DNA from: an uncultured archaeon | GTDB taxonomy: Archaea > Altiarchaeota > Altiarchaeia > IMC4 > SCGC-AAA252-I15 | DNA length: 64,000 nucleotides | Assembly (NCBI GenBank): GCA_902384455.1 | Contig: CABMCB010000071.1 | Location: 59,774-123,773, forward strand | Reading direction: 5' to 3' | Made by a program: the position numbers and the translations under genes | The notes under the pieces: model-generated | The model's database searches: none | What the model was told of the DNA's origin: nothing | The model's input: the letters and a program-made list of their open reading frames with translations, nothing else | Shown: positions 14,279-59,800 of the stretch, piece after piece | Numbering within the stretch: position 1 is the first letter of the stretch | Layout of the letters: every line of letters starts with the position of its first letter

Positions 14279-14600
14279 TTCATTAAAACACGCAGTTAAA
14301 CCAGTCTCCGGGGACTGCCGTGAGGATGCTCCTTTATGCCTACCGCATGAAGTCTATCCAGGGGGGAACGATGGACGGGACCGAAAGGCATCTCCTCCTG
14401 AAACAAGGGGTCCCCTCCGCCCGGAGGCTCATCTAGTTCACGCAGCATTTGACGGAACTGCCTTCCGGTATAATCCGGTGGATGCTGTTCCTTAATCGCA
14501 TCCCCCTTTCCTGGAGCCATCAATAAAAACCCGTATCGCAAGCTTAAAACCGCCAAAAACGGTTAATAAGGAGGTATAACGCAAAAAATTAGACTACACG

Positions 14601-15095
14601 GTGGTACAAATGGACATAGAAATCCGCCTACTGAAACTACTGGAAGAAGACGCGACGACGCCCACAAAAGACCTAGCCTCAATGCTGGGGGCAAAAGAGG
14701 CGGCCGTCGCAGCCGCAGTCAAAAAGCTAAGAGACAGCGGCGTAGTCACAGGCCAGAAGGCGGTCATAAATTGGAAGAAAGCCGGAGCGCCATACGCGTC
14801 GGCGGTCATCCAAGTCAAGGTGGTGCCTCAAGCAAAAGACGGCTTCGCCAAAATATGCAAAGACATAGCCAAAAACCGCATAGTAGAAGACGTTTTGGTC
14901 GTCAGCGGAGAATACGACCTCATGCTTACCGTCAGGGCCGAGTCCATTCAGGACATAAGTGATTTTGTGACTGAGGTTTTGGCGCCTAAGAAGGAGGTTG
15001 TGGGGACTAACACTCACATAGTTTTGTCTGAGTTTAAGCGGCGTGGAGTCTCGTTTACCGACGAGACGGGCAAAAGGCTTCCCGTCTCAATCTGA
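14601..15095 (+). CDS. Lrp/AsnC-family transcriptional regulator
   Basis: HTH 'LLKLLEEDATTPTKDLASMLGAKEAAVAAAVKKLRDSGVV' plus a C-terminal RAM domain. It sits 2 nt upstream of the aminotransferase gene. Confidence 0.8.
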   Translation: MVQMDIEIRLLKLLEEDATTPTKDLASMLGAKEAAVAAAVKKLRDSGVVTGQKAVINWKKAGAPYASAVIQVKVVPQAKDGFAKICKDIAKNRIVEDVLVVSGEYDLMLTVRAESIQDISDFVTEVLAPKKEVVGTNTHIVLSEFKRRGVSFTDETGKRLPVSI

Positions 15096-15097
15096 AA

Positions 15098-16252
15098 ATG
15101 GTCGCTAAACGAGTCAGTGAGATACCTTTTTCGGGTATCCGGAAGTTCTTCGAGCTTGTGGAGCAAAGCAAAGGCATAGTCAGCCTGGGTGTTGGCGAGC
15201 CCGACTTCAATACTCCCCGGCCGATTTCAGACGCGGGAATACGCGCTATTGAAGCCGGTTACACAAGCTACACCAGCAACTGGGGGCTTTTGGATTTGAG
15301 GGCGAAGATAGCCGAGAAACTTAAGGTAGAGAACGGCTTACATTATTCGCCTGAAAATGAGGTCTTAATTACTGCTGGAACCAGCGAGGCGCTTGACCTT
15401 GCGTTTAGGGCGCTGATTAATCCCGGCGACGAAGTGCTTGTTCCTGAGCCAAGTTACGTCAGCTACAAGCCGTGCGTGTGGTTCGCTTATGGAACTCCGG
15501 TTGCAGTGCCAATGAGGGAGGAAAACGATTTCCGCGTTCAGGAAGACGACTTGCGCAAGAAAATCACAAAGAAGACCAAGGCGATAATAGTCGCCTCCCC
15601 AAACAATCCGACTGGAAGCGTACTCACCAAGAAAGACCTGAAGGCGATTGCTGCAGTAGCCCAGGAACACGACCTGTGGGTGATAAGCGACGAACTATAC
15701 GAATACCTAATATACGACGGGGAAAAACACGTCTCCATAGGAAGCTTCCCCGGAATGCGAGAACGCACAATAACAATAAACGGATTTTCCAAAGGACACG
15801 CATTCACCGGATGGAGAATAGGATACGCCGCAGGCCCGGCAGAAGTAACTGAGCTTATGATGAAAATCCACCAGTACACGATGCTTTGCGCGCCAACAAT
15901 AGCCCAACACGCCGCGCTTGCCGCATTCAACTGCAAAAAAGAAGTCAAAGCGATGCAGGAGGAATACGACCGAAGACGCAGACTGCTGGTAGCCGGATTA
16001 AACGAGCTTCCAGGCGTAACCTGCCGCATGCCCAAAGGAGCATTCTACACCTTCCCAAACATAACCGGAACAGGAATGGACAGCGAAACATTCGCCCAAC
16101 GGCTCGTAAAAGAAGCGCAAGTAGCGGTAGTCCCAGGCCACACCTTCGGCCAGACCGGAGAAGGACACGTCCGATGCAGCTACAGCGTAAGCCGCGACAT
16201 AATCACGGAAGCGCTCTCCCGAATGCAAAAATTCCTGGCGAAAAAAGTGTAA
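15098..16252 (+). CDS. Class I/II PLP-dependent aminotransferase (aspartate/aromatic aminotransferase-like)
   Basis: PLP-lysine motif 'NGFSKGHAFTGWRIGYAAG'. 384 aa. Confidence 0.85.
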   Translation: MVAKRVSEIPFSGIRKFFELVEQSKGIVSLGVGEPDFNTPRPISDAGIRAIEAGYTSYTSNWGLLDLRAKIAEKLKVENGLHYSPENEVLITAGTSEALDLAFRALINPGDEVLVPEPSYVSYKPCVWFAYGTPVAVPMREENDFRVQEDDLRKKITKKTKAIIVASPNNPTGSVLTKKDLKAIAAVAQEHDLWVISDELYEYLIYDGEKHVSIGSFPGMRERTITINGFSKGHAFTGWRIGYAAGPAEVTELMMKIHQYTMLCAPTIAQHAALAAFNCKKEVKAMQEEYDRRRRLLVAGLNELPGVTCRMPKGAFYTFPNITGTGMDSETFAQRLVKEAQVAVVPGHTFGQTGEGHVRCSYSVSRDIITEALSRMQKFLAKKV

Positions 16253-23745: not shown

Positions 23746-24519
23746 CTACTTCTTTCCAGCAGCCTTAGAGGCGCATTTGTCAGCGAAATCCCTCACCACA
23801 GACAAACTGCTTAACCCACCAACCAAAGAAGACGCATCAGCAGGACAGAACAACTGAGGCACAACATCCTTATTCAAATAACTCCCCAAGCACTCATCCA
23901 AAACCTGCGTATCCACAGCAACACCAGCATCAAAAGTCCTAACCCTATAAGGAACCCCAGACTCAGACGTAAGATTAGCCAACTCACCCACAAACTTAGC
24001 CGCCTCAACGCACGGACCGCAAGTAGGATTAGAATAAAGCAAAACAGTATCCGCAGAAACACCCTTACCACTCAAGCAATCCCTAATCTTGCCGCTATCC
24101 GAAGCAAGACGATCACACGCCTTCTGAGAACGAGCATCCCTACACAAAGTAGCAGTAATAGCCGAAAGAGAACGCGCATCACCCAAAGTCACAACGCCAT
24201 CCCCCGCAACCAAAACCTTAGGCTCCTTAACCGCAGGACTAACAAAAAAAGGAAGAGAAACACCAACATCCTGACCAATAGCAGACAAAACCGCCTGAGA
24301 CCTAAAATAACCATTACACAAAACACACGAAGGCATATCCTGACCACCACAAGACGAACAATCAGAAGGATAAAGATAATAAACCGCCGCACCACCCGCA
24401 ACAGGCAAAACAACCTGACCCCCAACACCAGACGAAACATAAAGGAAACGGCCTAAGGCAACACCCACAATCAAGCCGGCAACAACGCCGGCCACAATAC
24501 CCCACTTGGTCTCAGCCAT
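23746..24519 (-). CDS. Membrane-anchored thioredoxin-fold protein
   Basis: N-terminal TM helix followed by 'NPTCGPCVEAAKF' (CGPC active site), with extra CSSCGG / CVLC cysteines. Confidence 0.6.
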   Translation of the reverse strand: MAETKWGIVAGVVAGLIVGVALGRFLYVSSGVGGQVVLPVAGGAAVYYLYPSDCSSCGGQDMPSCVLCNGYFRSQAVLSAIGQDVGVSLPFFVSPAVKEPKVLVAGDGVVTLGDARSLSAITATLCRDARSQKACDRLASDSGKIRDCLSGKGVSADTVLLYSNPTCGPCVEAAKFVGELANLTSESGVPYRVRTFDAGVAVDTQVLDECLGSYLNKDVVPQLFCPADASSLVGGLSSLSVVRDFADKCASKAAGKK

Positions 24520-24748: not shown

Positions 24749-24803
24749 TGCTTCACCCCAAAGAAAGAATTCGGCAACCTACGGTTGCCTCAAACTATGC
24801 GCT

Positions 24804-24888
24804 GCCGAGGTGGCGGAATCCGGCTATCGCGCACGCCTCGAAAGCGTGTTCCCACAAGGGAGTTTGGGTTCAAATCCCAACCTCGGCG
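24804..24888 (+). tRNA. tRNA-Ser (anticodon CGA)
   Basis: Acceptor GCCGAGG/CCTCGGC. Anticodon stem CACGC/GCGTG with loop CTCGAAA, a long variable arm, and the same T-arm as the neighbouring tRNA-Ser. Confidence 0.85.
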
Positions 24889-24952
24889 TTTCGAACGAAG
24901 TGAGAAATGCGAGGTTAGCAAGTCGAAAGAATTGCGCAAACCTCGGCGTTTC
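24879..24952 (+). repeat. Direct repeat of the tRNA-Ser 3' end (aacctcggcgtttc) at 24879-24892 and 24939-24952; att-like scar
   Basis: An exact 14-bp duplicate of the tRNA 3' end lies 46 bp downstream. Upstream, at 24571-24590, sits a degenerate copy of the tRNA 5' end (gccgaggtaggcgc), embedded in a 7-bp inverted repeat taagccg…cggctta. Confidence 0.5.
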
Positions 24953-25006: not shown

Positions 25007-26167
25007 TCAGATTGCTTTGACGATTGCGTCTTCGACTTTCTCCCCGATGACCTTGTTTGCTCTGTCTTCAGCCGCGAACTTCACCTTATCCAAAAGTCCC
25101 GGATAAGCCCTCGTATACTGCTCCTGGCAAAACCCTTTAGTCTCCTCATTTTTTATCCCGTCGCACATCGAGATGTTTTTGGCGGCTACCGCTACTTTGG
25201 ACACGCAGCCGTCCGTGTCGTAAGGCATAGACCTGCATTTCTGCGGGTCCTTCCACGCCACTGCGACATCTTCGATGCAGGAAACAGTGTTTGAGATGTC
25301 TTTAGTGCAATACAGCTCGTTCCCTCCGTTCATGGCGACTCCTGCGTAACATTTCTGCTGGTAGCCGTGGAGCTGGTCTGCCGAAAGTTTTGCGCAAATC
25401 TCAGGGTTAATTGAATTTATTCCGACTTCAGTCAAGCATTCATCCGTTCTGTCGCCGGTCATATTACATGCGGAAGCGTCCTTACCGTTGGCCGCTATGC
25501 AGAAGGTTCGGCTTTTTTCGTCGGTTATTTTTTTGCATACGTCCGGGTCTTTTTTGCTTACGCCGACTTCCGTGTTGCAGTCGTCTCTAATCGAGATGTT
25601 GTTAACCTTGTCGCATTGGGTTGAGTCTCTGAGTGTCTTGCCTAATTCGACTTGGCAGTTCGTTTTCGTCTCCTCGTCGTTTACTATCTTATCGCATGCT
25701 TCCGTGCTGTTGCTGTATTTAGCAAATCTTTCAAGGCAAAAATTCTTGGAGCCTGAATCGCTCAATTTCTCGCAAGTACTGACGTCATTTCCCGTTTGGG
25801 CGATTCCGAGGTAGCACCTAGATTTTTCAGTTTCATCCGATATCATGTCGCAGTATGTGGTGTCGCCACCTCTTTGAGCGAACTTATAGAAGCATGATTC
25901 CCGCGCCTTGTCTCCCTTGATGAGGGCGCACTTCTGCGGGTCGGTCACGGCCAGAGCAACGGCGTTGTAGCAATCCTGTTTCGCCTTATCTGTCGTCTGC
26001 TGCTCGCATATAGTCGGATCGCCCTTCTGCTTCGCATCATCGGTTATGGGGTCAGAATCGCCGAAAAGGCAGCCGGAAGAAAACACAAGCAAAACTACTG
26101 CGGTCAGCAAAACGAGCAAAAACACAGTTCCATACTCCCCACGAGATTTAATGGAGCACTTACTCAT
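25007..26167 (-). CDS. Secreted / membrane-anchored Cys-rich tandem-repeat protein, paralog of 33635..34471
   Basis: N-terminal signal anchor, then about 9 tandem ~27-aa units, each with two Cys: '…D[PT]xxC-x(10-12)-C…'. Examples are 'TICEQQTTDKAKQDCYNAVALAVTDPQKC' and 'CALIKGDKARESCFYKF'. Confidence 0.6.
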   Translation of the reverse strand: MSKCSIKSRGEYGTVFLLVLLTAVVLLVFSSGCLFGDSDPITDDAKQKGDPTICEQQTTDKAKQDCYNAVALAVTDPQKCALIKGDKARESCFYKFAQRGGDTTYCDMISDETEKSRCYLGIAQTGNDVSTCEKLSDSGSKNFCLERFAKYSNSTEACDKIVNDEETKTNCQVELGKTLRDSTQCDKVNNISIRDDCNTEVGVSKKDPDVCKKITDEKSRTFCIAANGKDASACNMTGDRTDECLTEVGINSINPEICAKLSADQLHGYQQKCYAGVAMNGGNELYCTKDISNTVSCIEDVAVAWKDPQKCRSMPYDTDGCVSKVAVAAKNISMCDGIKNEETKGFCQEQYTRAYPGLLDKVKFAAEDRANKVIGEKVEDAIVKAI

Positions 26168-26226: not shown

Positions 26227-26433
26227 CTATCTCAGCCTTTCGTTCAGCAAGACGACTATCGCCTCTACCTGAAGCGGCTCAAGGTAAGGGCATTTATCTA
26301 CGCCCTTAATGTCAGTGAACTCGTCAGAAAGAAACAACGCGAAGTCTTTACAAAGTTTAACCCCGCACTCCCCGCAGTCTCTGAGAGGCAGGTTCTTGTA
26401 AATCTTCATCGCCAAGACCGGGTCTGTCGCCAT
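26227..26433 (-). CDS. Small Cys-motif protein resembling the N-terminal [4Fe-4S] domain of corrinoid Fe-S protein large subunits
   Basis: 'MKIYKNLPLRDCGECGVKLCKDFALF' parallels the 'LPKTNCGECGxPTCLAFA' N-terminal motif of AcsC/CdhE. The true start is ATG 26433; the upstream extension in the track ORF is unlikely to be coding. Confidence 0.4.
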   Translation of the reverse strand: MATDPVLAMKIYKNLPLRDCGECGVKLCKDFALFLSDEFTDIKGVDKCPYLEPLQVEAIVVLLNERLR

Positions 26434-26716
26434 TTTAGGTGTTGGTGTTCTGCGCCGGGTTGGGTTACAGTCACCCCATCCGGAGTTCATCACTCCCCCG
26501 GGAACCTTTTGGGTTCGGTCTTGCAAGAGCCTATATCCAGCGCAGTGTCGCCCCCCATTTGCGTTCCACATCATTAAATCAGCGGACTCTTCGCAGGCGG
26601 GCTTACTTAAGATACGGCAAGAAGCTAATTAAACAAACGACCGACCCCGGATTCTTCGTCCAACAACGTTAAAGGCCGTTCCCCTCTTTTAAGCCCGTTT
26701 TGGTAATCCTTGACGT

Positions 26717-30870: not shown

Positions 30871-31602
30871 ATGGTACAAACACAACCACCACAGGAACGA
30901 GGAAGTCCGGCCGTAGACGCCTTCAGAGGAGTCGAGCAAGTAATCGGAGAGGTGCGAGTCACTCGTGAACTTGTGCGGGAGGCAACGGAAGGGTCAGTCA
31001 AATTCTTCACCGACCTAGCCCAAGACGCGCAGATGCCCAAGCTCCTCAACCAAGCGAGAGCCGAAGAAGCCCACATACGATCCCTCAAGCGGAGAATGGG
31101 AATATCCGACAGGGAACTGCCCGACGTAAGGCCCGTCATCGAAATAGGCTTTTCCTCCCTCGACAAGATGCTCGAGCAGAGAATAGACGACCCGCGGGAA
31201 AGAGCCCAAGTCAGAGGCGAAATACGAAAATTACTCCGCGGAGTGCCCAACGCGCTCACAGTCACCCTCGACACAGACGGAGAAGCCATAACAGCCTCAT
31301 CAACATTCGACGCGACCCGACGGCGGCTGTTTAGAGGATACACCGGAAAAGACCGGGAAATATCCACACAACCAGACGAACTAACTACATTCGCCACAGA
31401 CCTCGCCCTCAAATACCCCCAACTCGCCCTCAAATACCCAGAACTGGGAGAACAGCTAGGCACAGCAACGACAACCCCCCTACTCGAAATAGGGCTCGCA
31501 TGCGGCCTAACCCAGCTAGGCGAGAACCTCCGAATCGCGCGAGAAACCATACAAAAAAGGTTCCCCACCATAGAGCCGCCCACACAAGGCGGACAACCGT
31601 AA
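30871..31602 (+). CDS. Hypothetical protein with a short internal repeat
   Basis: 243-aa Arg/Glu-rich ORF containing the repeat 'ALKYPQLALKYPELG'. No recognisable domain. Confidence 0.4.
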   Translation: MVQTQPPQERGSPAVDAFRGVEQVIGEVRVTRELVREATEGSVKFFTDLAQDAQMPKLLNQARAEEAHIRSLKRRMGISDRELPDVRPVIEIGFSSLDKMLEQRIDDPRERAQVRGEIRKLLRGVPNALTVTLDTDGEAITASSTFDATRRRLFRGYTGKDREISTQPDELTTFATDLALKYPQLALKYPELGEQLGTATTTPLLEIGLACGLTQLGENLRIARETIQKRFPTIEPPTQGGQP

Positions 31603-33541: not shown

Positions 33542-33615
33542 GCCCGCGTGGGGTAGCTTGGATATCCTAGGAGCTTGCGGAGCTTCGGACCTGGGTTCGA
33601 ATCCCAGCGCGGGCA
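33542..33615 (+). tRNA. tRNA-Arg (anticodon GCG)
   Basis: Acceptor GCCCGCG/CGCGGGC plus A. Anticodon stem GGAGC/GCTTC with loop TTGCGGA. T-arm CTGGG-TTCGAAT-CCCAG. Confidence 0.8.
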
Positions 33616-33634: not shown

Positions 33635-34471
33635 TTATTTTTGTGTGATTGATCTGAGTGTTGCGGCGTCGTTGGCTTCTTTTATGCAGTTCATTCTCGT
33701 GGTTTGGTTGTTTAGTTGGTCGCAGAATCCTGGGCGGGCGAGTCTCATTGCGGTGAGGGCGATGCATTTGTCTGCGTCTTCTGGTGGGAGTTTCTTGCAG
33801 AATTCTACGGTGCCTGTTTCCATGCTTAGTTTGAAGGCGACTTCGCTGGAGCAGGTTTTTTGAAGGTCTTGATTCGTTATTTTTTTGCAGGCGTTGTTGT
33901 CGCTGAAGGAGTATGCGACTGCTTGGCGGCAGTTGTTTGCTTTTTCCTCCGCGTCTATTTTTGCGCAGACGTCTGGGTCTTTGTACTTCAGAGCTGACTT
34001 CAGGAGGCACTCCGCCTTTTGGAAGTCGTCTTTCTCTCTTTCGCAGTAGGCTCCTTTGCCGTAGACTGCGTCATACAACTCTTTAGCTTTCTCTTGGGCG
34101 GCTTCTGCGGCTTCTATCCCGTAAATTAAGCCGACTTTCGCCATGCATGCTTTGTTCTGCGCGGAGTCGTTGAGTTCGTCGCAGACTGAGAAGTCTTTTT
34201 TGTTGGCTGCGACTATGGAAACGCAGGGTTCCCTGTTTTCAGGGTCCTTAAGGAGCGCGCAGGCAGCGGTAGAATTGGTCTGGGAGGCGACCGACTTGAG
34301 GCAGCTGTCTATCTTCTCCTGCGGTTGAGGCTGGTCGGCAAGGTTTTTCTCGCATAAGCTGGGGTCGTTTGCTTTGATTGCGTCGTTGACTGCTTCTTCT
34401 ACCGGTGACTTGTCGCAGCCGCAAGCTAATACAACTAAAGTTAGCGTTAAAGCAATTACTGCCGTTCGCAT
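33635..34471 (-). CDS. Cys-rich tandem-repeat lipoprotein, paralog of 25007..26167
   Basis: Lipobox 'LVVLACGC'. Repeated 'C-x(10-12)-C' units are built like the 25-26 kb protein (e.g. 'CAKIDAEEKANNCRQAVAYSF', 'CKKITNQDLQKTCSSEVAFKL'). Confidence 0.6.
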   Translation of the reverse strand: MRTAVIALTLTLVVLACGCDKSPVEEAVNDAIKANDPSLCEKNLADQPQPQEKIDSCLKSVASQTNSTAACALLKDPENREPCVSIVAANKKDFSVCDELNDSAQNKACMAKVGLIYGIEAAEAAQEKAKELYDAVYGKGAYCEREKDDFQKAECLLKSALKYKDPDVCAKIDAEEKANNCRQAVAYSFSDNNACKKITNQDLQKTCSSEVAFKLSMETGTVEFCKKLPPEDADKCIALTAMRLARPGFCDQLNNQTTRMNCIKEANDAATLRSITQK

Positions 34472-39304: not shown

Positions 39305-40999
39305 TTAGTGTTTCTTCTTGGCTTTCAGCTTCCTATACCCCAGGTAAGCTAGGGCGAGGACTATCGCTATGGCTGCGTATGTGGTCATGCTGGTTCCGCC
39401 GCCGTTTAAGTTACCTCGCAAACCTGAGAACGTGCTTCCTCCGCTTGAACCCAAAGTTATCCTCTCGGTTTGAGTGACCCTCTGGTTGTTGAGGCCTGTG
39501 TACTCCAACTCTAATGTTGCGGGGCCTGTGGCGGTAGTAGAGAACGTGAACGTCGTCTGTTTGCTCGGCTTTATGTCGGATTTGTATGATATGATGCGTT
39601 GGTCCGTCTGCAGCTGGCTGCCGGTAATATTCCTTCTGAAACCTGCATTTTGGTTGTCGCTGCCGTTTTGGACTTGGGCGCCTTGGTCTGGACTTCCGGT
39701 TTGGTTTCGCTGGAATCTGCCGCCTTGGAAGCCGCTTGTGTCGTTTGAGACGCCGGATACTATAAGCGTCGCCTTGATTCCGTCCGCTTCTCTTGTGCCT
39801 ATGTTGGCGACGTCAATGCTTATGCTTCCGCTTGAGGACCTCACAGCCATTACTTCCAGCACTATTCTGCCTGCTACGTCGAGCCCTATGTCTTTGGTGA
39901 CGTTGTATGTTGTGCCTCCTACTTTGTATGTGATAATCAACGGTATTGTGTAACTTGTCGTGGAGGCGCTCCATCCTACAGCCACCTTAAAGTTGGCGTC
40001 AACTGTTCCTTGGGATGGGACATTTTGGAAGTAACTTTCTGTTGTGGTGACAGGCGAGAATGGGTCGGTGAGGTCTAGGTTCAACGTCACGTCGTCTGCG
40101 TTGGCGCTGCCGACGTTTTTAAGGCTTATCTTCATCTCCGTTTCCTCTCCTGGACCGGTCGGGGTGGTGCTTATGCTAACTACCTTAAAGTCTACTCCCG
40201 CGTCCTCAATGTTTAGGCCTATTGAGGCGTTGTCTGAGGCTTTGCTTCCTGAGGCGTCTGTGTAGGAGAGGCGTATTGATGTGGTGCATGCGCCTGATGT
40301 TGAGGGTTTTATGGGGTATGTTAAAGTGAATTTCTGGTTTGATGCTACGTCTCCGACGTATTTGCTTGATGAGCCCATTATTGTGGCGCAGCTTGAGGAT
40401 AGTGTTACTGTCAGGTCTTTTACGGCGTCTTTTGTTGTGCCTTCAAGGACTAGGTTGTCGAGGGTGTCTCGGTAGTAAGTTGTTTTTGTGGGGTTTATCT
40501 GGAATAGGGGGTTGCCCAGTATGTTGAGCGGTATCTCCCATGTTGTGAACGCGTTGTTGTCTTTAGAGCCGTCTGACTTGTAGCCGTTGTATGTTATCAG
40601 CACCTGTATGGCGGTTAGCCCTGTTTTTGCGGTTGGGTTGATTGTGAATATCACTGGCATGGCTTTTGAGTCTCCTGGGTCCATGCCTCCTATGTAGTAT
40701 GTTTTGTCTGTGGTGACTGTTGCTGTGCTGGAAAGCAGCACTTGGACGTTATCTGCGCTCTGTCCGCCGGTGTTTTTTATGACTAAATTAAGGATTCCGC
40801 CGTCTCCAGGCCGCAGGTTGGAGTCTACTGAGGTGGTTGTGAAGTCTACGACCATGTTTGTCGCTGCGGTGTTTGTGGATGAGGCTGTGCTTGTTGAGCC
40901 TACTGTGGCGGCGTTGGCCGTTATGCTGAGTAATCCTATTATGGTTAATGCTATTAGCAGTGTTTTTCCGTAGTATCTGTGATTTTGCTTTTCTATCAT
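39305..40999 (-). CDS. Cell-surface protein with repeated CARDB/COG1361-like domains and a C-terminal TM anchor
   Basis: Signal peptide, then multiple 'LxLxIKNxGxxxAxNVxV'-type beta-sandwich repeats ('GGILNLVIKNTGGQSADNVQVLL', 'MKISLKNVGSANADDVTLNL'). C-terminal 'TTYAAIAIVLALAYLGYRKLKAKKKH'. Confidence 0.7.
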   Translation of the reverse strand: MIEKQNHRYYGKTLLIALTIIGLLSITANAATVGSTSTASSTNTAATNMVVDFTTTSVDSNLRPGDGGILNLVIKNTGGQSADNVQVLLSSTATVTTDKTYYIGGMDPGDSKAMPVIFTINPTAKTGLTAIQVLITYNGYKSDGSKDNNAFTTWEIPLNILGNPLFQINPTKTTYYRDTLDNLVLEGTTKDAVKDLTVTLSSSCATIMGSSSKYVGDVASNQKFTLTYPIKPSTSGACTTSIRLSYTDASGSKASDNASIGLNIEDAGVDFKVVSISTTPTGPGEETEMKISLKNVGSANADDVTLNLDLTDPFSPVTTTESYFQNVPSQGTVDANFKVAVGWSASTTSYTIPLIITYKVGGTTYNVTKDIGLDVAGRIVLEVMAVRSSSGSISIDVANIGTREADGIKATLIVSGVSNDTSGFQGGRFQRNQTGSPDQGAQVQNGSDNQNAGFRRNITGSQLQTDQRIISYKSDIKPSKQTTFTFSTTATGPATLELEYTGLNNQRVTQTERITLGSSGGSTFSGLRGNLNGGGTSMTTYAAIAIVLALAYLGYRKLKAKKKH

Positions 41000-55008: not shown

Positions 55009-55218
55009 ATGAAAGATTTGAAATTAGAAGTGAAAGGCATGCACTGCCACAGCTGCGAGATGCTCATAGAAGACTCTCTCGCAGAAGTCGCGGGGGTGCG
55101 CAAAGTCAAAGCCGACCACAAAGCCGGTTTAGTCAGAATCACAGCCGACGATTCAGTTAACCTGAACGCAGTGAAGAAGGCGATTGTGAAGGAAGGATAC
55201 GAGGTAGTTGAGGAATGA
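55009..55218 (+). CDS. copZ: Heavy-metal-associated (HMA) copper chaperone
   Basis: 69 aa with 'GMHCHSCEM' metal-binding motif. SD-like 'gaggtga' upstream. Confidence 0.8.
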   Translation: MKDLKLEVKGMHCHSCEMLIEDSLAEVAGVRKVKADHKAGLVRITADDSVNLNAVKKAIVKEGYEVVEE

Positions 55219-57080
55219 AAAACAATATGATGAAAGAAAAATTCGGCGTCGAAGGCATGACTTGCAGCGGCTGCGAGCGGATAATAGAAAAGAAGGTGTC
55301 TAAGCTGCCGGGCGTTACTAAGGTTTCCACGGACTTTCGGACCGGGAAAGGCAGCATAACCTACGACAAAAGCGCAGTAAGCCGCGAAGACATAATGGCC
55401 GAAATGAAGGATTGCGGGTACGTATGCTCTTTTGGCGAAGGAAAAAAGACGAGTCCCTACGCAGGCATATCCATCCTTTTGGGTGCGCTCATAGTTTTGG
55501 GCGGAGCCTACGTCCTCGCTGCGCCACGCATAGAAGGATTAATCCCCTCAGTAGACCAAAACACGTCGCTTATACTCCTATTCATAGTAGGACTGTTCAC
55601 GGGATTCCACTGCGTAGCAATGTGCGGCGGATTCGTAGTATCCTACACCACAAAATCCGCGGCAGAAGGCAAGGCCGGATTCAACTTAGGTTCCCACGCA
55701 GCATACGCCGTAGGAAAAACACTCTCCTATACAGTAATAGGGGCTACGTTCGGATTCATAGGAAGCTTCTTCACGTTCACACCCTTCCTAAGGGGAGCGG
55801 CAGCAATACTGGCGGGAGCATTCCTCGTAATATTCGGGCTGTCAATGCTTGACGCATTCAGCCAACTACGAAGGTTCAGACTTAAAACGCCATCCGTCAT
55901 GCAAAAACTCACATACAAATGGATGGGAAACAACTCAAACCCACTCATAATAGGACTACTGAACGGCCTAATGATAGCGTGCGGCCCCCTTCAGGCAATG
56001 TACCTGTTGGCTGCTGCAAGCGGAAGCGCCTACTTAGGCGGACTGTACCTTATGGCATTCGGCCTTGGGACGTTGCCTTTGCTTGTCGGATTCGGGGTTG
56101 TGACGTCGCTTGTTTCGGCGCAGTTCACTCATAAGATACTCAAGTTTTCCGGCGTATTCGTTGTGATTTTAGGGCTCATTATGCTTAACCGCGGGTTGAC
56201 GCTTACAGGCACAGGATACGATTTGAGTTCAATAGTGGCCGTCGCCTCCGCTTCAACGGCTATTCCGGAAGCTTCTGCGACCTCGCAGCAGCCGTCTTAT
56301 CAGGAAATCCGGATGGATGTTACTGCGGAAGGATGGAGTCCGGACTCGTTCGTTTTGCAGAAAGGCGTCCCAGTAAAGTGGGTTATCAACGTCAAGGAGC
56401 TCACCAACTGCAACAAAGCGATACAGGTGCCTAAACTGGGCTTATACTTCAACCTTAAGCAGGGAGTTCAGACTATCGAGTTCACTCCAAACGAGTCTGG
56501 GGTTATACCTTGGAGCTGCTGGATGGGGATGATTCCCGGCAGGTTCATAGTCAAAGACGACGCGGTAGCGGCGGGCGCAAACCCGATAGCGGCTGAGCCG
56601 TTCAAAACGCAAAATCCGCCAGCAGGCCAAAACCCAGCTAATCCGGCCCCGACTACTACGATAGCGGCGCAGCCGACAGTCCAGGTTTTACCTGCAGACC
56701 CATCAAGCCCATCCAATTACCAGGAAATCCGCATGGACGTAACGGCCTCAGGATTTTCCCCAAATAAGTTCGTGCTAAAGCGCGGAGTCCCGGTGAAGTG
56801 GATAATCAACGGGAAGCAACTCACAGGCTGCAACAGCGCAATCAAAGTGCCATCTCTAGGTCTGCAGTTCAATGTGAAAGAAGGCCTGCAGACGATAGAG
56901 TTCACTCCGAATGACGCGGGCACCATTCAATGGAGCTGCTGGATGGGTATGCTTCGCGGAGTCTTCGTAGTCCAAGACGACACGTCAAACGTTGCGGCCG
57001 CACTAAACACGGTCCAAGTTCCGCAAGGAGGAAGTTGTGGAGGCGGAGGTGGCGGCTGCGGCTGCGGGATGATGAGGTAA
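55215..57080 (+). CDS. Fusion protein: HMA domain, then a DsbD_2/UreH-like metal permease with an HCxxMCGG motif, then two cupredoxin-like repeats
   Basis: 'GMTCSGCERI' HMA motif; about 6 TM with 'FHCVAMCGG'. Two ~110-aa repeats follow ('YQEIRMDVTA…IEFTP…WSCWMGM'). C-terminal 'GGSCGGGGGGCGCGMMR'. Confidence 0.65.
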   Translation: MKNNMMKEKFGVEGMTCSGCERIIEKKVSKLPGVTKVSTDFRTGKGSITYDKSAVSREDIMAEMKDCGYVCSFGEGKKTSPYAGISILLGALIVLGGAYVLAAPRIEGLIPSVDQNTSLILLFIVGLFTGFHCVAMCGGFVVSYTTKSAAEGKAGFNLGSHAAYAVGKTLSYTVIGATFGFIGSFFTFTPFLRGAAAILAGAFLVIFGLSMLDAFSQLRRFRLKTPSVMQKLTYKWMGNNSNPLIIGLLNGLMIACGPLQAMYLLAAASGSAYLGGLYLMAFGLGTLPLLVGFGVVTSLVSAQFTHKILKFSGVFVVILGLIMLNRGLTLTGTGYDLSSIVAVASASTAIPEASATSQQPSYQEIRMDVTAEGWSPDSFVLQKGVPVKWVINVKELTNCNKAIQVPKLGLYFNLKQGVQTIEFTPNESGVIPWSCWMGMIPGRFIVKDDAVAAGANPIAAEPFKTQNPPAGQNPANPAPTTTIAAQPTVQVLPADPSSPSNYQEIRMDVTASGFSPNKFVLKRGVPVKWIINGKQLTGCNSAIKVPSLGLQFNVKEGLQTIEFTPNDAGTIQWSCWMGMLRGVFVVQDDTSNVAAALNTVQVPQGGSCGGGGGGCGCGMMR

Positions 57081-57619: not shown

Positions 57620-59800
57620 ATGAAGACTAACTTGCGTATCTCCGGGATGCACTGCGCCAACTGCTCCACGCTCATAACCCGCACTTTAAAGAAGACGCCC
57701 GGAGTGACGGACGCAAACGTGAACCTTTCGACTGAAAAGGCGGCTGTTGATTACGATGAAACTAAGGTGTCTGTGCAGGAAATTATTTCCGCCGTAAAAA
57801 ACAAGGGTTATGGGGCGCAGGTTTCGACTGAAGCGGACAAGACGACTGAGGAACTGGAGAAGAAGGAGGAACTGGCAAGAACCAGTAAGTTGCTTTTTTT
57901 CAGCGTGATGCTGGCCGTTCCCGCCGCACTCTTAGGGATGGTCTTTATGGAGCGCGTCCCCTACGCAATTTACTTCCTGTTTCTTCTTGCGACGCCAGTG
58001 CAGTTCATAGCGGGAGCCCGTTTCTATAAAGGTGCGTGGTCCGCCCTGAAAAACAAGACGAGCAACATGGACACTCTGGTTGCGTTGGGGACGTCGGCGG
58101 CGTACTTCTACAGCGTAGTTGTGATGCTCACGAACCCGATGGGGAACCAGTACTTCGAGACCGCAGCAGTACTCATAACATTCGTGCTTCTTGGAAAGTA
58201 CCTTGAGGCGAAGGCTAAGGGGAAAACGAGCGAAGCAATAAAGAAGCTCATGGACATGAGCTCTAAGACGGCGACAGTAATCCGCGACGGCAAAGAACTG
58301 ATTCTTCCCGTAGAGCAGGTCGTAGTCGGAGACATAATACTCGTTAAACCCGGAGAGAAAATCCCGGTGGACGGCACAATCATATCCGGCGCAAGCAGCA
58401 TAGACGAATCGATGATAACCGGAGAAAGCGTTCCAGTCGAAAAAACAGCAGGAAACGCGGTAATCGGCTCAACGATAAACAAGCACGGAAGCTTCAAATT
58501 CAAGGCCACGAAAGTCGGCGCGGACACGACGCTCGCTCACATAATAAAGCTGGTGGAAGACGCGCAAGGTTCGCGCGCCCCGATACAGCGGTTCGCAGAC
58601 TCGGTCAGCAGCATCTTCGTCCCCGCAGTAATAACAATAGCAATACTCTCGTTCGCATTCTGGTACATACTCGCAGGAAAAACACTCGCATTCGCCCTCA
58701 TAATAGCAGTATCCGTCCTTGTGATATCCTGTCCCTGTGCGCTAGGCTTGGCTACACCCACCGCCATAATGGTGGGCATAGGCAAAGGCGCTGAGCTCGG
58801 CATACTAATCAAAAGCGGAGAAGCCCTTGAAACAGCCCAAAAAATAAACGCCGTCATATTCGACAAAACAGGCACCATCACAAAAGGAACGCCCTCAGTC
58901 ACAGACGTAATACCTCTACCCGGATTCACCGAAGAAGAAGCAATCACCTACGCAGCAAGCGTTGAGAAAAACTCAGAGCACCCGCTTGCCGAAGCAATAC
59001 TCAAACACGCCAAAGAAAAAGACGTGACGCCAACAGAAGTCACACACTTCACAGCAATACCCGGCCACGGAATAACTGCAACAGCCCACGGAAAAAAGAT
59101 TATCTTCGGCAACAGAAAGCTAGCGGCAGAACAAAAAATAGACACAACCCCCTTCGAAGACCGGCTCACTGCGCTCGAAGACGAAGGGAAAACCGTTGTG
59201 ATACTCGCAGTAGGCGGCACGCCTGCGGCATTGATTGCAATAGCCGACACAATCAAAGAAACGTCTCCTCCTGCAGTCGAAGAGCTGAAGAGAATCGGCG
59301 TCGAAGTCTACATGATAACAGGAGACAACAAAAGGACCGCGAAAGCAGTAGCAAAGAAAGCCCACATCGACAACGTCTTCTCCGAAGTCCTGCCGGAAGA
59401 CAAAGCCCGCCACGTCAAAGAACTGCAGGAAAAAGGCAAAAAAGTCGCAATGGTAGGCGACGGAATAAACGACGCACCCGCGCTCGCACAAGCAGACGTA
59501 GGAATAGTCATGGCCTCAGGCACCGACGTGGCGATGGAGGCCGGAGGAATAGTATTGATGAAAAACAATCCGGCTGACGTAGTAAAGGCGATTCGTTTAA
59601 GCAGGACCACTATGAGCAAAATAAGGCAAAACATGTTTTGGGCGCTCGTATACAACACGCTTGGGATACCTGTGGCTGCGGGAATATTCTATCCGTTCAC
59701 CGGGTGGCTTCTTTCTCCAATAATAGCCGGAGGCGCGATGGCGTTAAGTTCGGTGTCCGTCGTAAGCAACTCGCTGCTGTTGAAGTACAAGAAAATTTAA
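57620..59800 (+). CDS. copA: Copper-translocating P1B-type ATPase
   Basis: N-terminal HMA 'GMHCANC', TM6 'CPC' ('[12 protein letters not shown]'), phosphorylation site 'DKTGTIT', hinge '[10 protein letters not shown]' and HP motif 'SEHPLA'. Confidence 0.92.

Follow-up and report, generated by a model that had tools for sequence, protein, structure and literature searches.

The window analysed here, a 64,000-nucleotide stretch of DNA from an uncultured archaeon, contains two complete genes for cysteine-rich tandem-repeat proteins, referred to as paralogs A and B. The initial annotation had located them at 25007..26167 (386 aa) and 33635..34471 (278 aa); these coordinates and lengths are correct, and both genes lie on the minus strand. 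The features of the two genes are as follows:

25007..26167, minus strand: complete coding sequence of paralog A, 386 aa (open reading frame and identical database entry VVB53572.1)
26069..26167, minus strand: signal peptide of A with a lipobox-like end, aa 1-33, ...LLVFSSGC33 (basic n-region, 17-residue hydrophobic run, SGC)
25103..26023, minus strand: repeat array of A, 12 units of ~26 aa, aa 49-355 (unit table, alignment A1, secondary-structure mapping)
25010..25102, minus strand: C-terminal helical tail of A without cysteine, aa 356-386, ...KVKFAAEDRANKV... (low pLDDT)
33635..34471, minus strand: complete coding sequence of paralog B, 278 aa (open reading frame and NCBI VVB53581.1)
34421..34471, minus strand: lipoprotein-type signal peptide of B, aa 1-17, MRTAVIALTLTLVVLAC17 (from the sequence itself)
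33662..34369, minus strand: repeat array of B, 8 units, aa 35-270 (unit table, alignment A1, AF2 model, secondary-structure mapping)
34061..34144, minus strand: insertion in B, a 28-aa extra helix after Cys2 of unit 3, aa 110-137, AKVGLIYGIEAAEAAQEKAKELYDAVY (34-residue cysteine gap)

A and B are real genes, given the TATA-like box and Shine-Dalgarno-like sequence 5' of both, the confident fold predictions, and the thousands of homologues described below. Paralog A is recorded at NCBI as 'Uncharacterised protein [uncultured archaeon]'. The two proteins match the repeat HMM with E-values of 1.5e-111 (A) and 9e-57 (B) and align to each other at 24-26% identity (E=2e-15), and a six-frame HMM scan of the window returned them as its only repeat ORFs. 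The neighbouring genes are housekeeping genes, and gene A is adjoined by a gene (23746..24519) whose membrane-anchored product contains a CGPC motif.

The repeat consists of a short helix (4-6 residues) bearing Cys1, a loop, and a long helix (13-16, ~14 residues) bearing Cys2, in the pattern Cys1-x9-16-Cys2-x13-Cys1'. The invariant spacing is the one from Cys2 to Cys1' of the next unit (x13), and the Cys1-Cys2 loop is variable (10-17 residues). Paralog A contains 26 cysteines, 24 of which make up 12 units with cysteine gaps alternating between ~12 and ~14 residues; in B, 16 of 18 cysteines make up 8 units. The initial annotation of exported repeat proteins with two cysteines per tandem unit is borne out, although its estimate of 9-10 units of ~27 aa gives way to 12 (A) and 8 (B) units of ~26 aa each, and its D[PT]xxC motif applies to just 5 of the 12 units of A; [DN]-x3-C is present in 11 of the 12. 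The spacing is not a product of chance: all 23 cysteine gaps in mature A measure 10-15 residues (mean of 4.3 and maximum of 14 in shuffled sequences, none of 20,000 reaching 23), as do 12 of 15 in B, a count matched by none of 20,000 shuffles. The C-terminal tail of A recurs, within the set of family members sampled, only in its in-genome paralog P0047.

Both proteins carry N-terminal export signals. Against the lipobox test [LVI][ASTVI][GAS]C, B fits (V-L-A-C17) and is classed as lipobox-like, in agreement with the lipoprotein signal initially assigned to it; an additional cysteine, Cys19, lies just after the lipobox Cys17. The corresponding end of A, S-S-G-C33, fits at positions -1 and -2 and is non-canonical because of the atypical Ser at -3. 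Nevertheless, A most likely has a lipobox rather than the plain signal anchor first proposed, since its VFSSGC33 fits the SGC end that dominates the family (40 of 90 family signals; SGC or AGC in 56 of 90) and is kept, with Cys33, as VFASGC in P0047; lipidation itself is predicted. Among the top family members, 75 of 153 are lipobox-like and 59 of 153 have a transmembrane segment or signal peptide, and the accessory domains in the family are rare and of extracellular types (TSP3_bac, DUF5667). The archaeal lipoprotein lipidation enzyme AliA has been reported in DPANN (PMC12462473).

The third paralog, P0047, is encoded on the same contig and is collinear with A. The two proteins are 36% identical, with 25 of 25 cysteines conserved and a non-cysteine identity of 31%. 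Conservation of the cysteine spacing among relatives, on which the initial annotation had made its reading depend, is accordingly seen in this relative and across the family. By contrast, the suggestion of an expanding surface-protein family does not hold: the in-genome paralogs are just 24-36% identical and DNA-level tandem repeats are absent from genes A and B, which together indicate old copies, and the family extends well beyond this genome. With A and B as queries, a word-index homology search retrieved nothing beyond the two proteins and one distant match, and the same type of search with the 52-column alignment A2 returned none. An exhaustive profile search yielded 8,545 cluster representatives (50% clustering), 3,230 of them at E<=1e-10. 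The repeat is therefore not an orphan; it defines a huge, widely spread family, with 4 to 24 or more units per protein. Loci in GTDB were found with a hand-written degenerate DNA pattern, and true repeat ORFs were present at 120 of 120 matches, of which 63 are labelled DPANN and 23 CPR. The family is concentrated in ultra-small DPANN archaea and CPR bacteria; a single match occurred among 2.9 million viral contigs. Homologues of the window neighbours, sought in the 120 loci, revealed no conserved partner, and the neighbours across these loci, clustered and annotated with Pfam, were housekeeping genes with no conserved operon neighbour, as were the Pfam-annotated neighbours at the 'Methanosarcinales'-labelled loci.

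The initial annotation could not assign the repeat to any known family, and this judgement stands. Pfam gave no match to A or B at E<=10 and no repeat family among 10 canonical members at E<=1; NCBIfam gave no match to A, B, or the same 10 members; and the family profiles A1 and A2 matched no PDB chain at E<=10. The repeat is thus covered by no curated family. No description of the repeat was found in the literature. The family consensus is [DN]-x-C2-Y-x2-[VIL]-A-x4-[DN]-x-s-[IL]-C1-[ED]-k-I; conservation is confined to scaffold positions (Cys, Tyr, Ala, Asp/Asn, and three hydrophobic residues), and the remainder is hydrophilic and highly variable.

Structure prediction suggests an all-α solenoid fold. 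The AF2 model of A has pLDDT values of 85-90 across residues 40-220, that of B a mean pLDDT of 85.2, and its insertion at aa 110-137 is modelled as a single long helix with a lower pLDDT of ~65. In both models the helices form one continuous, elongated stack, which places the predicted structures in the α-solenoid class and is exactly the helical-hairpin solenoid envisaged in the initial annotation; of its two alternatives, a solenoid or beads on a string, the AlphaFold models favour the solenoid, and the continuity of the stack speaks against the beads. With pTM values of 0.45-0.52, the models leave the overall, long-range shape uncertain. A Foldseek search of model A against the PDB gave nothing better than ARM, HEAT, or designed-repeat matches at E>0.06.

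Regarding the pairing of the cysteines, one intra-unit Cys1-Cys2 disulfide per hairpin is the most likely arrangement, as judged from sequence statistics. This reading relies on the even cysteine parity and on the presence of whole Cys1..Cys2 pairs at the array ends, and both favour the disulfides that the paired cysteines had initially suggested. The number of cysteines beyond the anchor cysteine is even in 82 of 90 lipobox members (p=1.4e-16), and in 136 of 153 arrays the first cysteine is of the Cys1 type and the last of the Cys2 type. The first cysteine gap of the arrays is 10-13 residues in 61 members and 14 in 3, and the last is 10-13 in 76 and 14 in 3. Gaps implying a skipped cysteine (~26, 38, or 40) are very rare among ~4,500 gaps in the family; the repeat HMM itself reports only units holding all four cysteines. 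Secondary-structure mapping places Cys1 and Cys2 about equally far from the connecting loop. Anoxic habitats are common for DPANN and CPR organisms, and extracytoplasmic disulfides are less expected there. Oxidative folding of the repeat proteins is plausible in view of the CGPC membrane protein beside A, which has no significant match in the PDB, and of the enrichment of MdbA-like CxxC oxidoreductases with VKOR in CPR (10.1101/335083).

From these features, a model is proposed in which A and B would be extracytoplasmic and anchored at the outer surface of the cytoplasmic membrane via the N-terminal lipobox cysteine. The mature chain would consist nearly throughout of 26-residue helix-loop-helix units, with Cys2 ~5-6 residues into the long helix, and the units would stack into an elongated α-solenoid. 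Each hairpin would be stapled by a Cys1-Cys2 disulfide closing the variable loop, and the stapled solenoid would form a rigid rod outside the cell, resistant to protease and stress. The ligand could be a protein or a glycan, carried either by the envelope of the same cell or by a partner cell. α-Solenoid repeat proteins, including TPR, SLR, ARM, and HEAT proteins, are binding scaffolds, and we infer a binding function by analogy with them and from the combination of conserved scaffold positions with a variable hydrophilic remainder. That A and B are lipobox-anchored, disulfide-stapled α-solenoids acting as a cell-surface binding or adhesion scaffold is the reading toward which we lean, albeit modestly; for the genome of the window, adhesion to a partner cell is speculative. 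The neighbour genes of the 120 loci offered no ligand or partner of the family.

The absence of a conserved partner gene is also what would be expected of a purely structural envelope component, in which rigid disulfide-stapled rods, binding no specific ligand, would keep the membrane spaced from an S-layer or cell wall, brace the two as struts, or form a protective coat. The proteins are elongated, repetitive, and membrane-anchored, several paralogs occur per genome, no catalytic or recognisable binding domain is present, and the range of unit numbers would suit length-tunable spacers. The extreme divergence of the exposed positions and the multiplicity of paralogs at such low identity are, however, better accommodated by diversified recognition surfaces, and a self-assembly signal was not identified. 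A structural role is consequently regarded as rather unlikely. The strict conservation of the cysteines, which account for 6.7% of residues, could alternatively reflect functional thiols, with the array binding metals (Cu, Zn, Fe, or thiophilic toxic metals) or acting as an extracytoplasmic redox buffer or electron sink. Such a role would suit anoxic habitats, many host lineages being anaerobes, and the window carries copper-handling genes (a DsbD_2-HMA-cupredoxin fusion and a Cu-type P-type ATPase); these lie ~30 kb away, however, and are unlinked in other genomes. Moreover, His amounts to just 0.8%, CxxC and CxxCH motifs are absent, the variable Cys1-Cys2 spacing is poorly suited to a pre-organised metal site, and in the predicted models both cysteines lie in helices packed together, as in known disulfide-stapled hairpins. 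The idea of a four-cysteine metal site is rejected, as multiples of four are not favoured among the cysteine counts of lipobox members (39 vs 43). Overall, functional thiols appear improbable.

The remaining alternative concerns classification: the repeat may be a very divergent branch of a described helical repeat (Sel1-like/Hcp, TPR, or HEAT-like PBS-lyase/LRV) instead of a separate family. Hcp/Sel1-like repeats are likewise secreted and have one disulfide per helix pair. Nevertheless, the repeat models of Pfam and NCBIfam miss A, B, and the 10 canonical members even at E<=1-10, the PDB is equally silent toward both family profiles, and the 26-aa unit compares with 34-44 aa in TPR and SLR. 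This origin is the least probable of the explanations considered.

DPANN archaea and CPR bacteria account for a large share of microbial diversity, and most of these organisms appear to live attached to other cells. To our knowledge, the surface molecules mediating this attachment are almost unknown. The present analysis provides concrete candidate surface proteins spanning both groups, in the form of a family of thousands without a counterpart in Pfam, NCBIfam, or the PDB, together with a usable profile, its distribution across both groups, a predicted fold, and a proposed disulfide pattern. A bolder proposal, put forward tentatively and with considerable doubt, is that the repeat represents a new helical-repeat class based on a 26-residue one-disulfide hairpin and a cross-domain, horizontally exchanged signature family of ultra-small, host-dependent prokaryotes (DPANN and CPR), functioning as a diversifiable host-attachment adhesin. 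If so, a single profile would pick out candidate host-attachment proteins in both radiations. The unit would rank among the shortest natural helical-hairpin repeats, with a built-in disulfide staple, and could be an attractive and very stable scaffold. Even if the proteins are an inert structural coat, the family would still provide a useful annotation for many 'hypothetical proteins'.

Several known systems invite comparison. Large extracellular cysteine-rich (~7%) proteins with signal peptides have been described in CPR Peribacteria, with a proposed role in attachment (PMC4736985). They share with the present family the cysteine content, the signal peptide, and the occurrence in CPR, whereas their mean length is 1,655 aa and they show weak similarity to the Myxococcus cysteine-rich repeat or FG-GAP; the present repeat is not mentioned in that work (PMC4736985). 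Scanned against NCBIfam and Pfam, A, B, and the 10 members gave no match to the Myxococcus repeat (TIGR02232 type). TPR and PPR profiles, with a 34/35-residue unit, did not match the 26-aa repeat either. TPR, PPR, and DHR show 5-12% sequence identity to it, with scores generic for any helical repeat, and their units of 34-35 aa are cytoplasmic and lack cysteines; PPR proteins furthermore have RNA as their ligand, an implausible one for a lipoprotein that is exported. The HEAT-like PBS-lyase repeat (~27-31 aa) and LRV (24 aa) are also cytoplasmic and without a cysteine pair, and the Pfam models HEAT_PBS, HEAT_2, and LRV gave no match.

The Sel1-like (SLR) proteins HcpA, HcpB, and HcpC of Helicobacter offer parallels in general features. 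They are likewise exported and contain tandem helix-turn-helix units stacked as a solenoid; one cysteine pair per unit occurs in both families, forming in Hcp a disulfide that bridges both helices; and both families comprise several paralogs, whose variable surfaces have been linked to contacts with other cells. HcpB and HcpC are represented in the PDB, and similarity to solved Hcp/SLR structures was not detectable with the A1 and A2 profiles (E<=10), nor did the Sel1 repeat profile (Pfam PF08238) match A or B (E<=10) or the 10 canonical members (E<=1). The Sel1/Hcp unit comprises 36-44 aa with two similar helices, whereas the present unit comprises 26 aa with one short and one long helix. Hcp proteins are distributed in Proteobacteria and Campylobacterota, in contrast to the DPANN and CPR distribution of the present family, whose archaeal members, unlike Hcp, are lipobox-anchored.

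Two cysteine-rich tandem-repeat ORFs, referred to here as A and B, are present in the window as the initial annotation had described them:

25007..26167, minus strand: A, 386 aa
33635..34471, minus strand: B, 278 aa

A contains 26 Cys (6.7%), and past its signal region the successive Cys gaps alternate between ~12 and ~14. Counted by these gaps, units of ~26 residues number 12 in A and 8 in B, in place of the 9-10 units of ~27 aa originally proposed, and unit 3 of B carries a 28-residue insertion. All 23 of the 23 Cys gaps in mature A (shuffle mean 4.3) and 12 of the 15 in mature B (shuffle mean 2.8) fall within 10-15, values equaled by 0/20,000 shuffles in either case. With Cys1 and Cys2 denoting the first and second Cys of a unit, the spacing from Cys2 to the Cys1 that opens the following unit is fixed (Cys2-x13-Cys1), and the variable part is the Cys1-Cys2 loop. 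A and B align with 24-26% identity (E=2e-15), and a six-frame scan of the 64-kb window with the repeat profile revealed no further copies. Neither A nor B shows tandem repetition at the DNA level, which marks their units as ancient and divergent. Just upstream of the ATG, both have a GGAGG-like motif and a TATA-like box rich in A/T.

The repeat had been left without a family assignment, and this is borne out by database searches. A and B have no match in Pfam-A or NCBIfam even at E<=10, 10 canonical members yielded no repeat match in Pfam or NCBIfam at E<=1, and the family profiles A1 (from 16 double units of the window) and A2 (a 52-column alignment) retrieved nothing meaningful from all PDB sequences at E<=10. 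Apart from one distantly related metagenomic protein that shares the repeat, a word-index protein search returned only the identical NCBI entries (A, VVB53572.1; B, VVB53581.1), which are named "Uncharacterised protein [uncultured archaeon]" and belong to a 248,195-bp contig. An exhaustive search of 1.84 billion cluster representatives with A1 matched 8,545 proteins at E<=1e-3, of which 3,230 reach E<=1e-10 and 286 reach E<=1e-30; one member is entered in UniProt as "Uncharacterized protein." Full-text literature searches found no account of the repeat, only general remarks on extracellular Cys-rich proteins of CPR genomes that may serve in attachment (PMC4736985). A and B are members of a huge, old family that is widely distributed, lacks a curated model, and could not be related to any named repeat family; what is new here is a predicted alpha-solenoid repeat with a short 26-residue unit and a built-in Cys pair.

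Family anatomy was derived from the 153 best proteins, in which the most frequent Cys gaps are 14 (n=1,764) and 12 (n=1,416). The consensus is [DN]-x-C2-Y-x2-[VIL]-A-x4-[DN]-x-s-[IL]-C1-[ED]-k-I, and all positions outside it are variable and hydrophilic; the composition is high in D, K, S, E, and N, with His at just 0.8%. Members range from 264 to 1,034 aa, with ~4 to 24 or more units. Approximately half of the 153 have a lipobox-type N-terminus, most frequently ending in SGC (40/90) or AGC (16/90), and the remainder mostly have a TM segment or signal peptide. The lipoprotein signal first noted in B is retained, whereas the plain signal anchor assigned to A is not: its VFSSGC33 matches the SGC pattern, which suggests that A is probably a lipoprotein as well. 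Regions of >=90 aa outside the repeats occur in 59/153 proteins, and the only Pfam domains in them are TSP3_bac (four members), DUF5667 (two), and a zinc ribbon (one). TSP3_bac is an extracellular domain type.

The AF2 models of A and B are all-alpha with an identical period. A modeled alone reaches pLDDT 85-90 at residues 40-220, with a low-confidence C-terminal third; B modeled with a 3-sequence alignment has a mean pLDDT of 85.2, exceeding 90 across most of the mature chain, and its five models all lie between 82 and 85. In both proteins the unit is a helical hairpin, in which a short helix of 4-6 residues bearing Cys1 leads through a loop of 3-5 residues to a long helix of 13-16 residues, with Cys2 ~5-6 residues after its start. 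This all-alpha, short helix-loop-long helix period points to an alpha-solenoid as the predicted fold class, with no specific structural relative, and the overall curvature is uncertain because pTM is 0.45-0.52.

The solenoid originally conjectured is well supported by these models, and Cys parity and the array ends favor its stabilization by disulfides. The number of Cys after the lipobox Cys is even in 82/90 members (binomial p=1.4e-16). The first gap of the array is 10-13 in 61 members and 14 in three, the last gap is 10-13 in 76 and 14 in three, and 136/153 arrays open on a Cys1-type and close on a Cys2-type Cys; arrays are therefore built of whole Cys1..Cys2 pairs, as would be expected if disulfide partners lie within one unit. 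Furthermore, Cys1 and Cys2 are about equally distant from the connecting loop in the models, which is not so for Cys2 and the next Cys1. Loss of Cys is very rare among the 153 proteins, and A and its 36%-identical paralog P0047 share all 25 Cys with a non-Cys identity of just 31%, so that the Cys conservation anticipated in relatives was found. Taken together, family statistics and model geometry are most simply read as a single disulfide in each hairpin, closing the variable loop.

P0047 (VVB53709.1, 390 aa) is the most A-like protein, with 34-36% identity, collinear from the lipobox to the C-terminal tail, and is encoded ~137 protein accession numbers, i.e., roughly as many genes, from A. 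Both share a Cys-free C-terminal helical tail (KV.FAAED...) that was not found in other sampled members. As A, B, and P0047 lie on one contig, the genome has at least three paralogs; judged by their sequences, all are anciently diverged. Paralogs within the genome are thus confirmed, and the local expansion once suggested is not, the family comprising thousands of representatives elsewhere. The following features adjoin A and B:

23746..24519, minus strand: CGPC protein, 257-aa ORF adjoining A, N-terminal membrane helix
24632..24717 and 24803..24889, plus strand: two tandem tRNA-Ser genes (GGA, CGA anticodons), between A and the CGPC protein
26227..26574, minus strand: small 115-aa ORF, 60 bp upstream of A on the same strand
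33542..33615, plus strand: tRNA-Arg (GCG), 20 bp past the stop codon of B and convergent with it

In the small ORF, CGECGVKLC weakly matches the putative Fe-S cluster motif of Pfam ("FeS"). Genes near A and B are housekeeping or unrelated, including those for LeuRS, thiamine pyrophosphokinase, a solute-binding protein of a probable thiamine ABC transporter, a CDP-alcohol phosphatidyltransferase, and a response regulator. A and B look monocistronic, the only recurring neighbor families across the 120 independent loci listed are housekeeping genes, and gene context offers no functional clue. In nine loci (L041, L048, L058, L059, L064, L066, L089, L092, and L116; eight labeled Woesearchaeota and one Nanoarchaeia), ~415-aa repeat proteins with 2-3 canonical units adjoin a conserved ~770-aa protein without a Pfam match, which could be a lineage-specific partner.

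These organisms plausibly have machinery to form disulfides outside the cytoplasm. The CGPC protein, with its >12 Cys and a thioredoxin-type motif (NPTCGPCV) as its active site, is a candidate thiol-disulfide oxidoreductase, anchored in the membrane and facing outward. It gave a weak Glutaredoxin match in Pfam (E=0.079) and nothing else, and no significant match among PDB sequences; the 120 other loci listed do not retain its linkage to the repeat genes. MdbA-like CxxC oxidoreductases and VKOR have been reported as enriched in CPR (10.1101/335083). Other features of the window are as follows:

30871..31602, plus strand: 243-aa protein, no Pfam match, containing a 21-bp tandem repeat (31397..31445, 2.3 copies) encoding ALKYPQL/ALKYPEL
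39305..40999, minus strand: 564-aa protein with CARDB and NPCBM_assoc (NEW3) domains, a probable further cell-surface protein
55215..57080, plus strand: unusual three-domain fusion of HMA, DsbD_2 transmembrane thiol-disulfide transporter, and cupredoxin-like domains
57620..59800, plus strand: HMA-containing P-type ATPase, directly downstream of the fusion

The last two are probably a copper-handling pair. The window also encodes glutamate dehydrogenase, glycine cleavage, an amino-acid permease, and thiamine salvage, a gene content compatible with, and not diagnostic of, a small heterotrophic archaeon.

One genome per GTDB species was scanned with a degenerate DNA pattern of ~41 bits encoding C-x11-C-Y-x2-[VILMF]-A-x4-[DN]-x2-[VILMF]-C-x2-I-x8-C. 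At least 120 loci were found, and the ORFs of all 120 listed match the repeat profile (E 1e-9 to 1e-185). By record title, 63 of the 120 are DPANN (Woesearchaeota 18, Micrarchaeota 17, Iainarchaeum 8, Nanoarchaeota 8, Altiarchaeota 7, Pacearchaeota 3, Undinarchaeota 1, and Aenigmatarchaeota 1) and 23 are CPR/Patescibacteria (Parcubacteria, Paceibacterota, Saccharibacteria, Nealson-, Lipton-, Falkow-, Buchanan-, Roizman-, and Peribacteria, and Absconditabacterales). Unspecified archaea account for 10, other archaea for three, other or unspecified bacteria for 10 (including two Bdellovibrionales), and TPA records labeled "uncultured Methanosarcinales" or "Methanosarcinales," which may not be the true lineage, for 11. 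One of the latter, L106 (binchicken_co121_309, a MAG whose label may be wrong), shows local synteny with the window: L106:963-6042 corresponds to 14580..16252 and 25007..26167, with a 53%-identical aminotransferase, an adjoining ORF at 32%, and a repeat protein nearby. Several MAGs have two or three separate loci each among the matches listed; multiple copies are therefore common. By a regex heuristic, about half of the archaeal members in these loci are lipobox-like, and CPR members mainly have a plain TM segment or signal peptide. Among 2.9 million viral contigs, one carries a member (L122:10624-10905, IMGVR_UViG_3300035698_021140; genuine at E=7e-22, partial at the sequence end); this may be a copy carried by a virus or else cellular DNA wrongly classed as viral. 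Large proteins containing the repeats are also encoded by two MAGs of predatory Bdellovibrionales (L088:3701-7615 and L097), likewise prey-attaching organisms. Most interesting about the family is its distribution over DPANN and CPR; the interest would be greater if the family were a cross-domain attachment scaffold of episymbionts.

The explanation we narrowly favor is that A and B would be tethered to the cell surface by a lipid anchor, that their units would stack into a disulfide-stapled alpha-solenoid rod, and that the rod would display a variable surface for binding. Its structural part is quite probable; the binding function, argued by analogy, is tentative. An inert structural spacer or coat is a rather unlikely alternative. 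Functional thiols, serving metal binding or redox buffering, are improbable: Cys counts divisible by four are not favored (39 vs 43, p=0.74), which argues against four-Cys metal sites from neighboring units, His is scarce, CxxC is absent in the family, and the Cys1-Cys2 loop is variable. That the family is an unrecognized, divergent offshoot of Sel1, TPR, or HEAT is most improbable, as every sequence and structure search and the unit of 26 residues stand against it.

The binding mode proposed for these surface rods matches how TPR, SLR, ARM, and HEAT scaffolds work. The closest likeness is to the Helicobacter Hcp/Sel1-like proteins, which are secreted and have one disulfide per helix pair, an Hcp feature.
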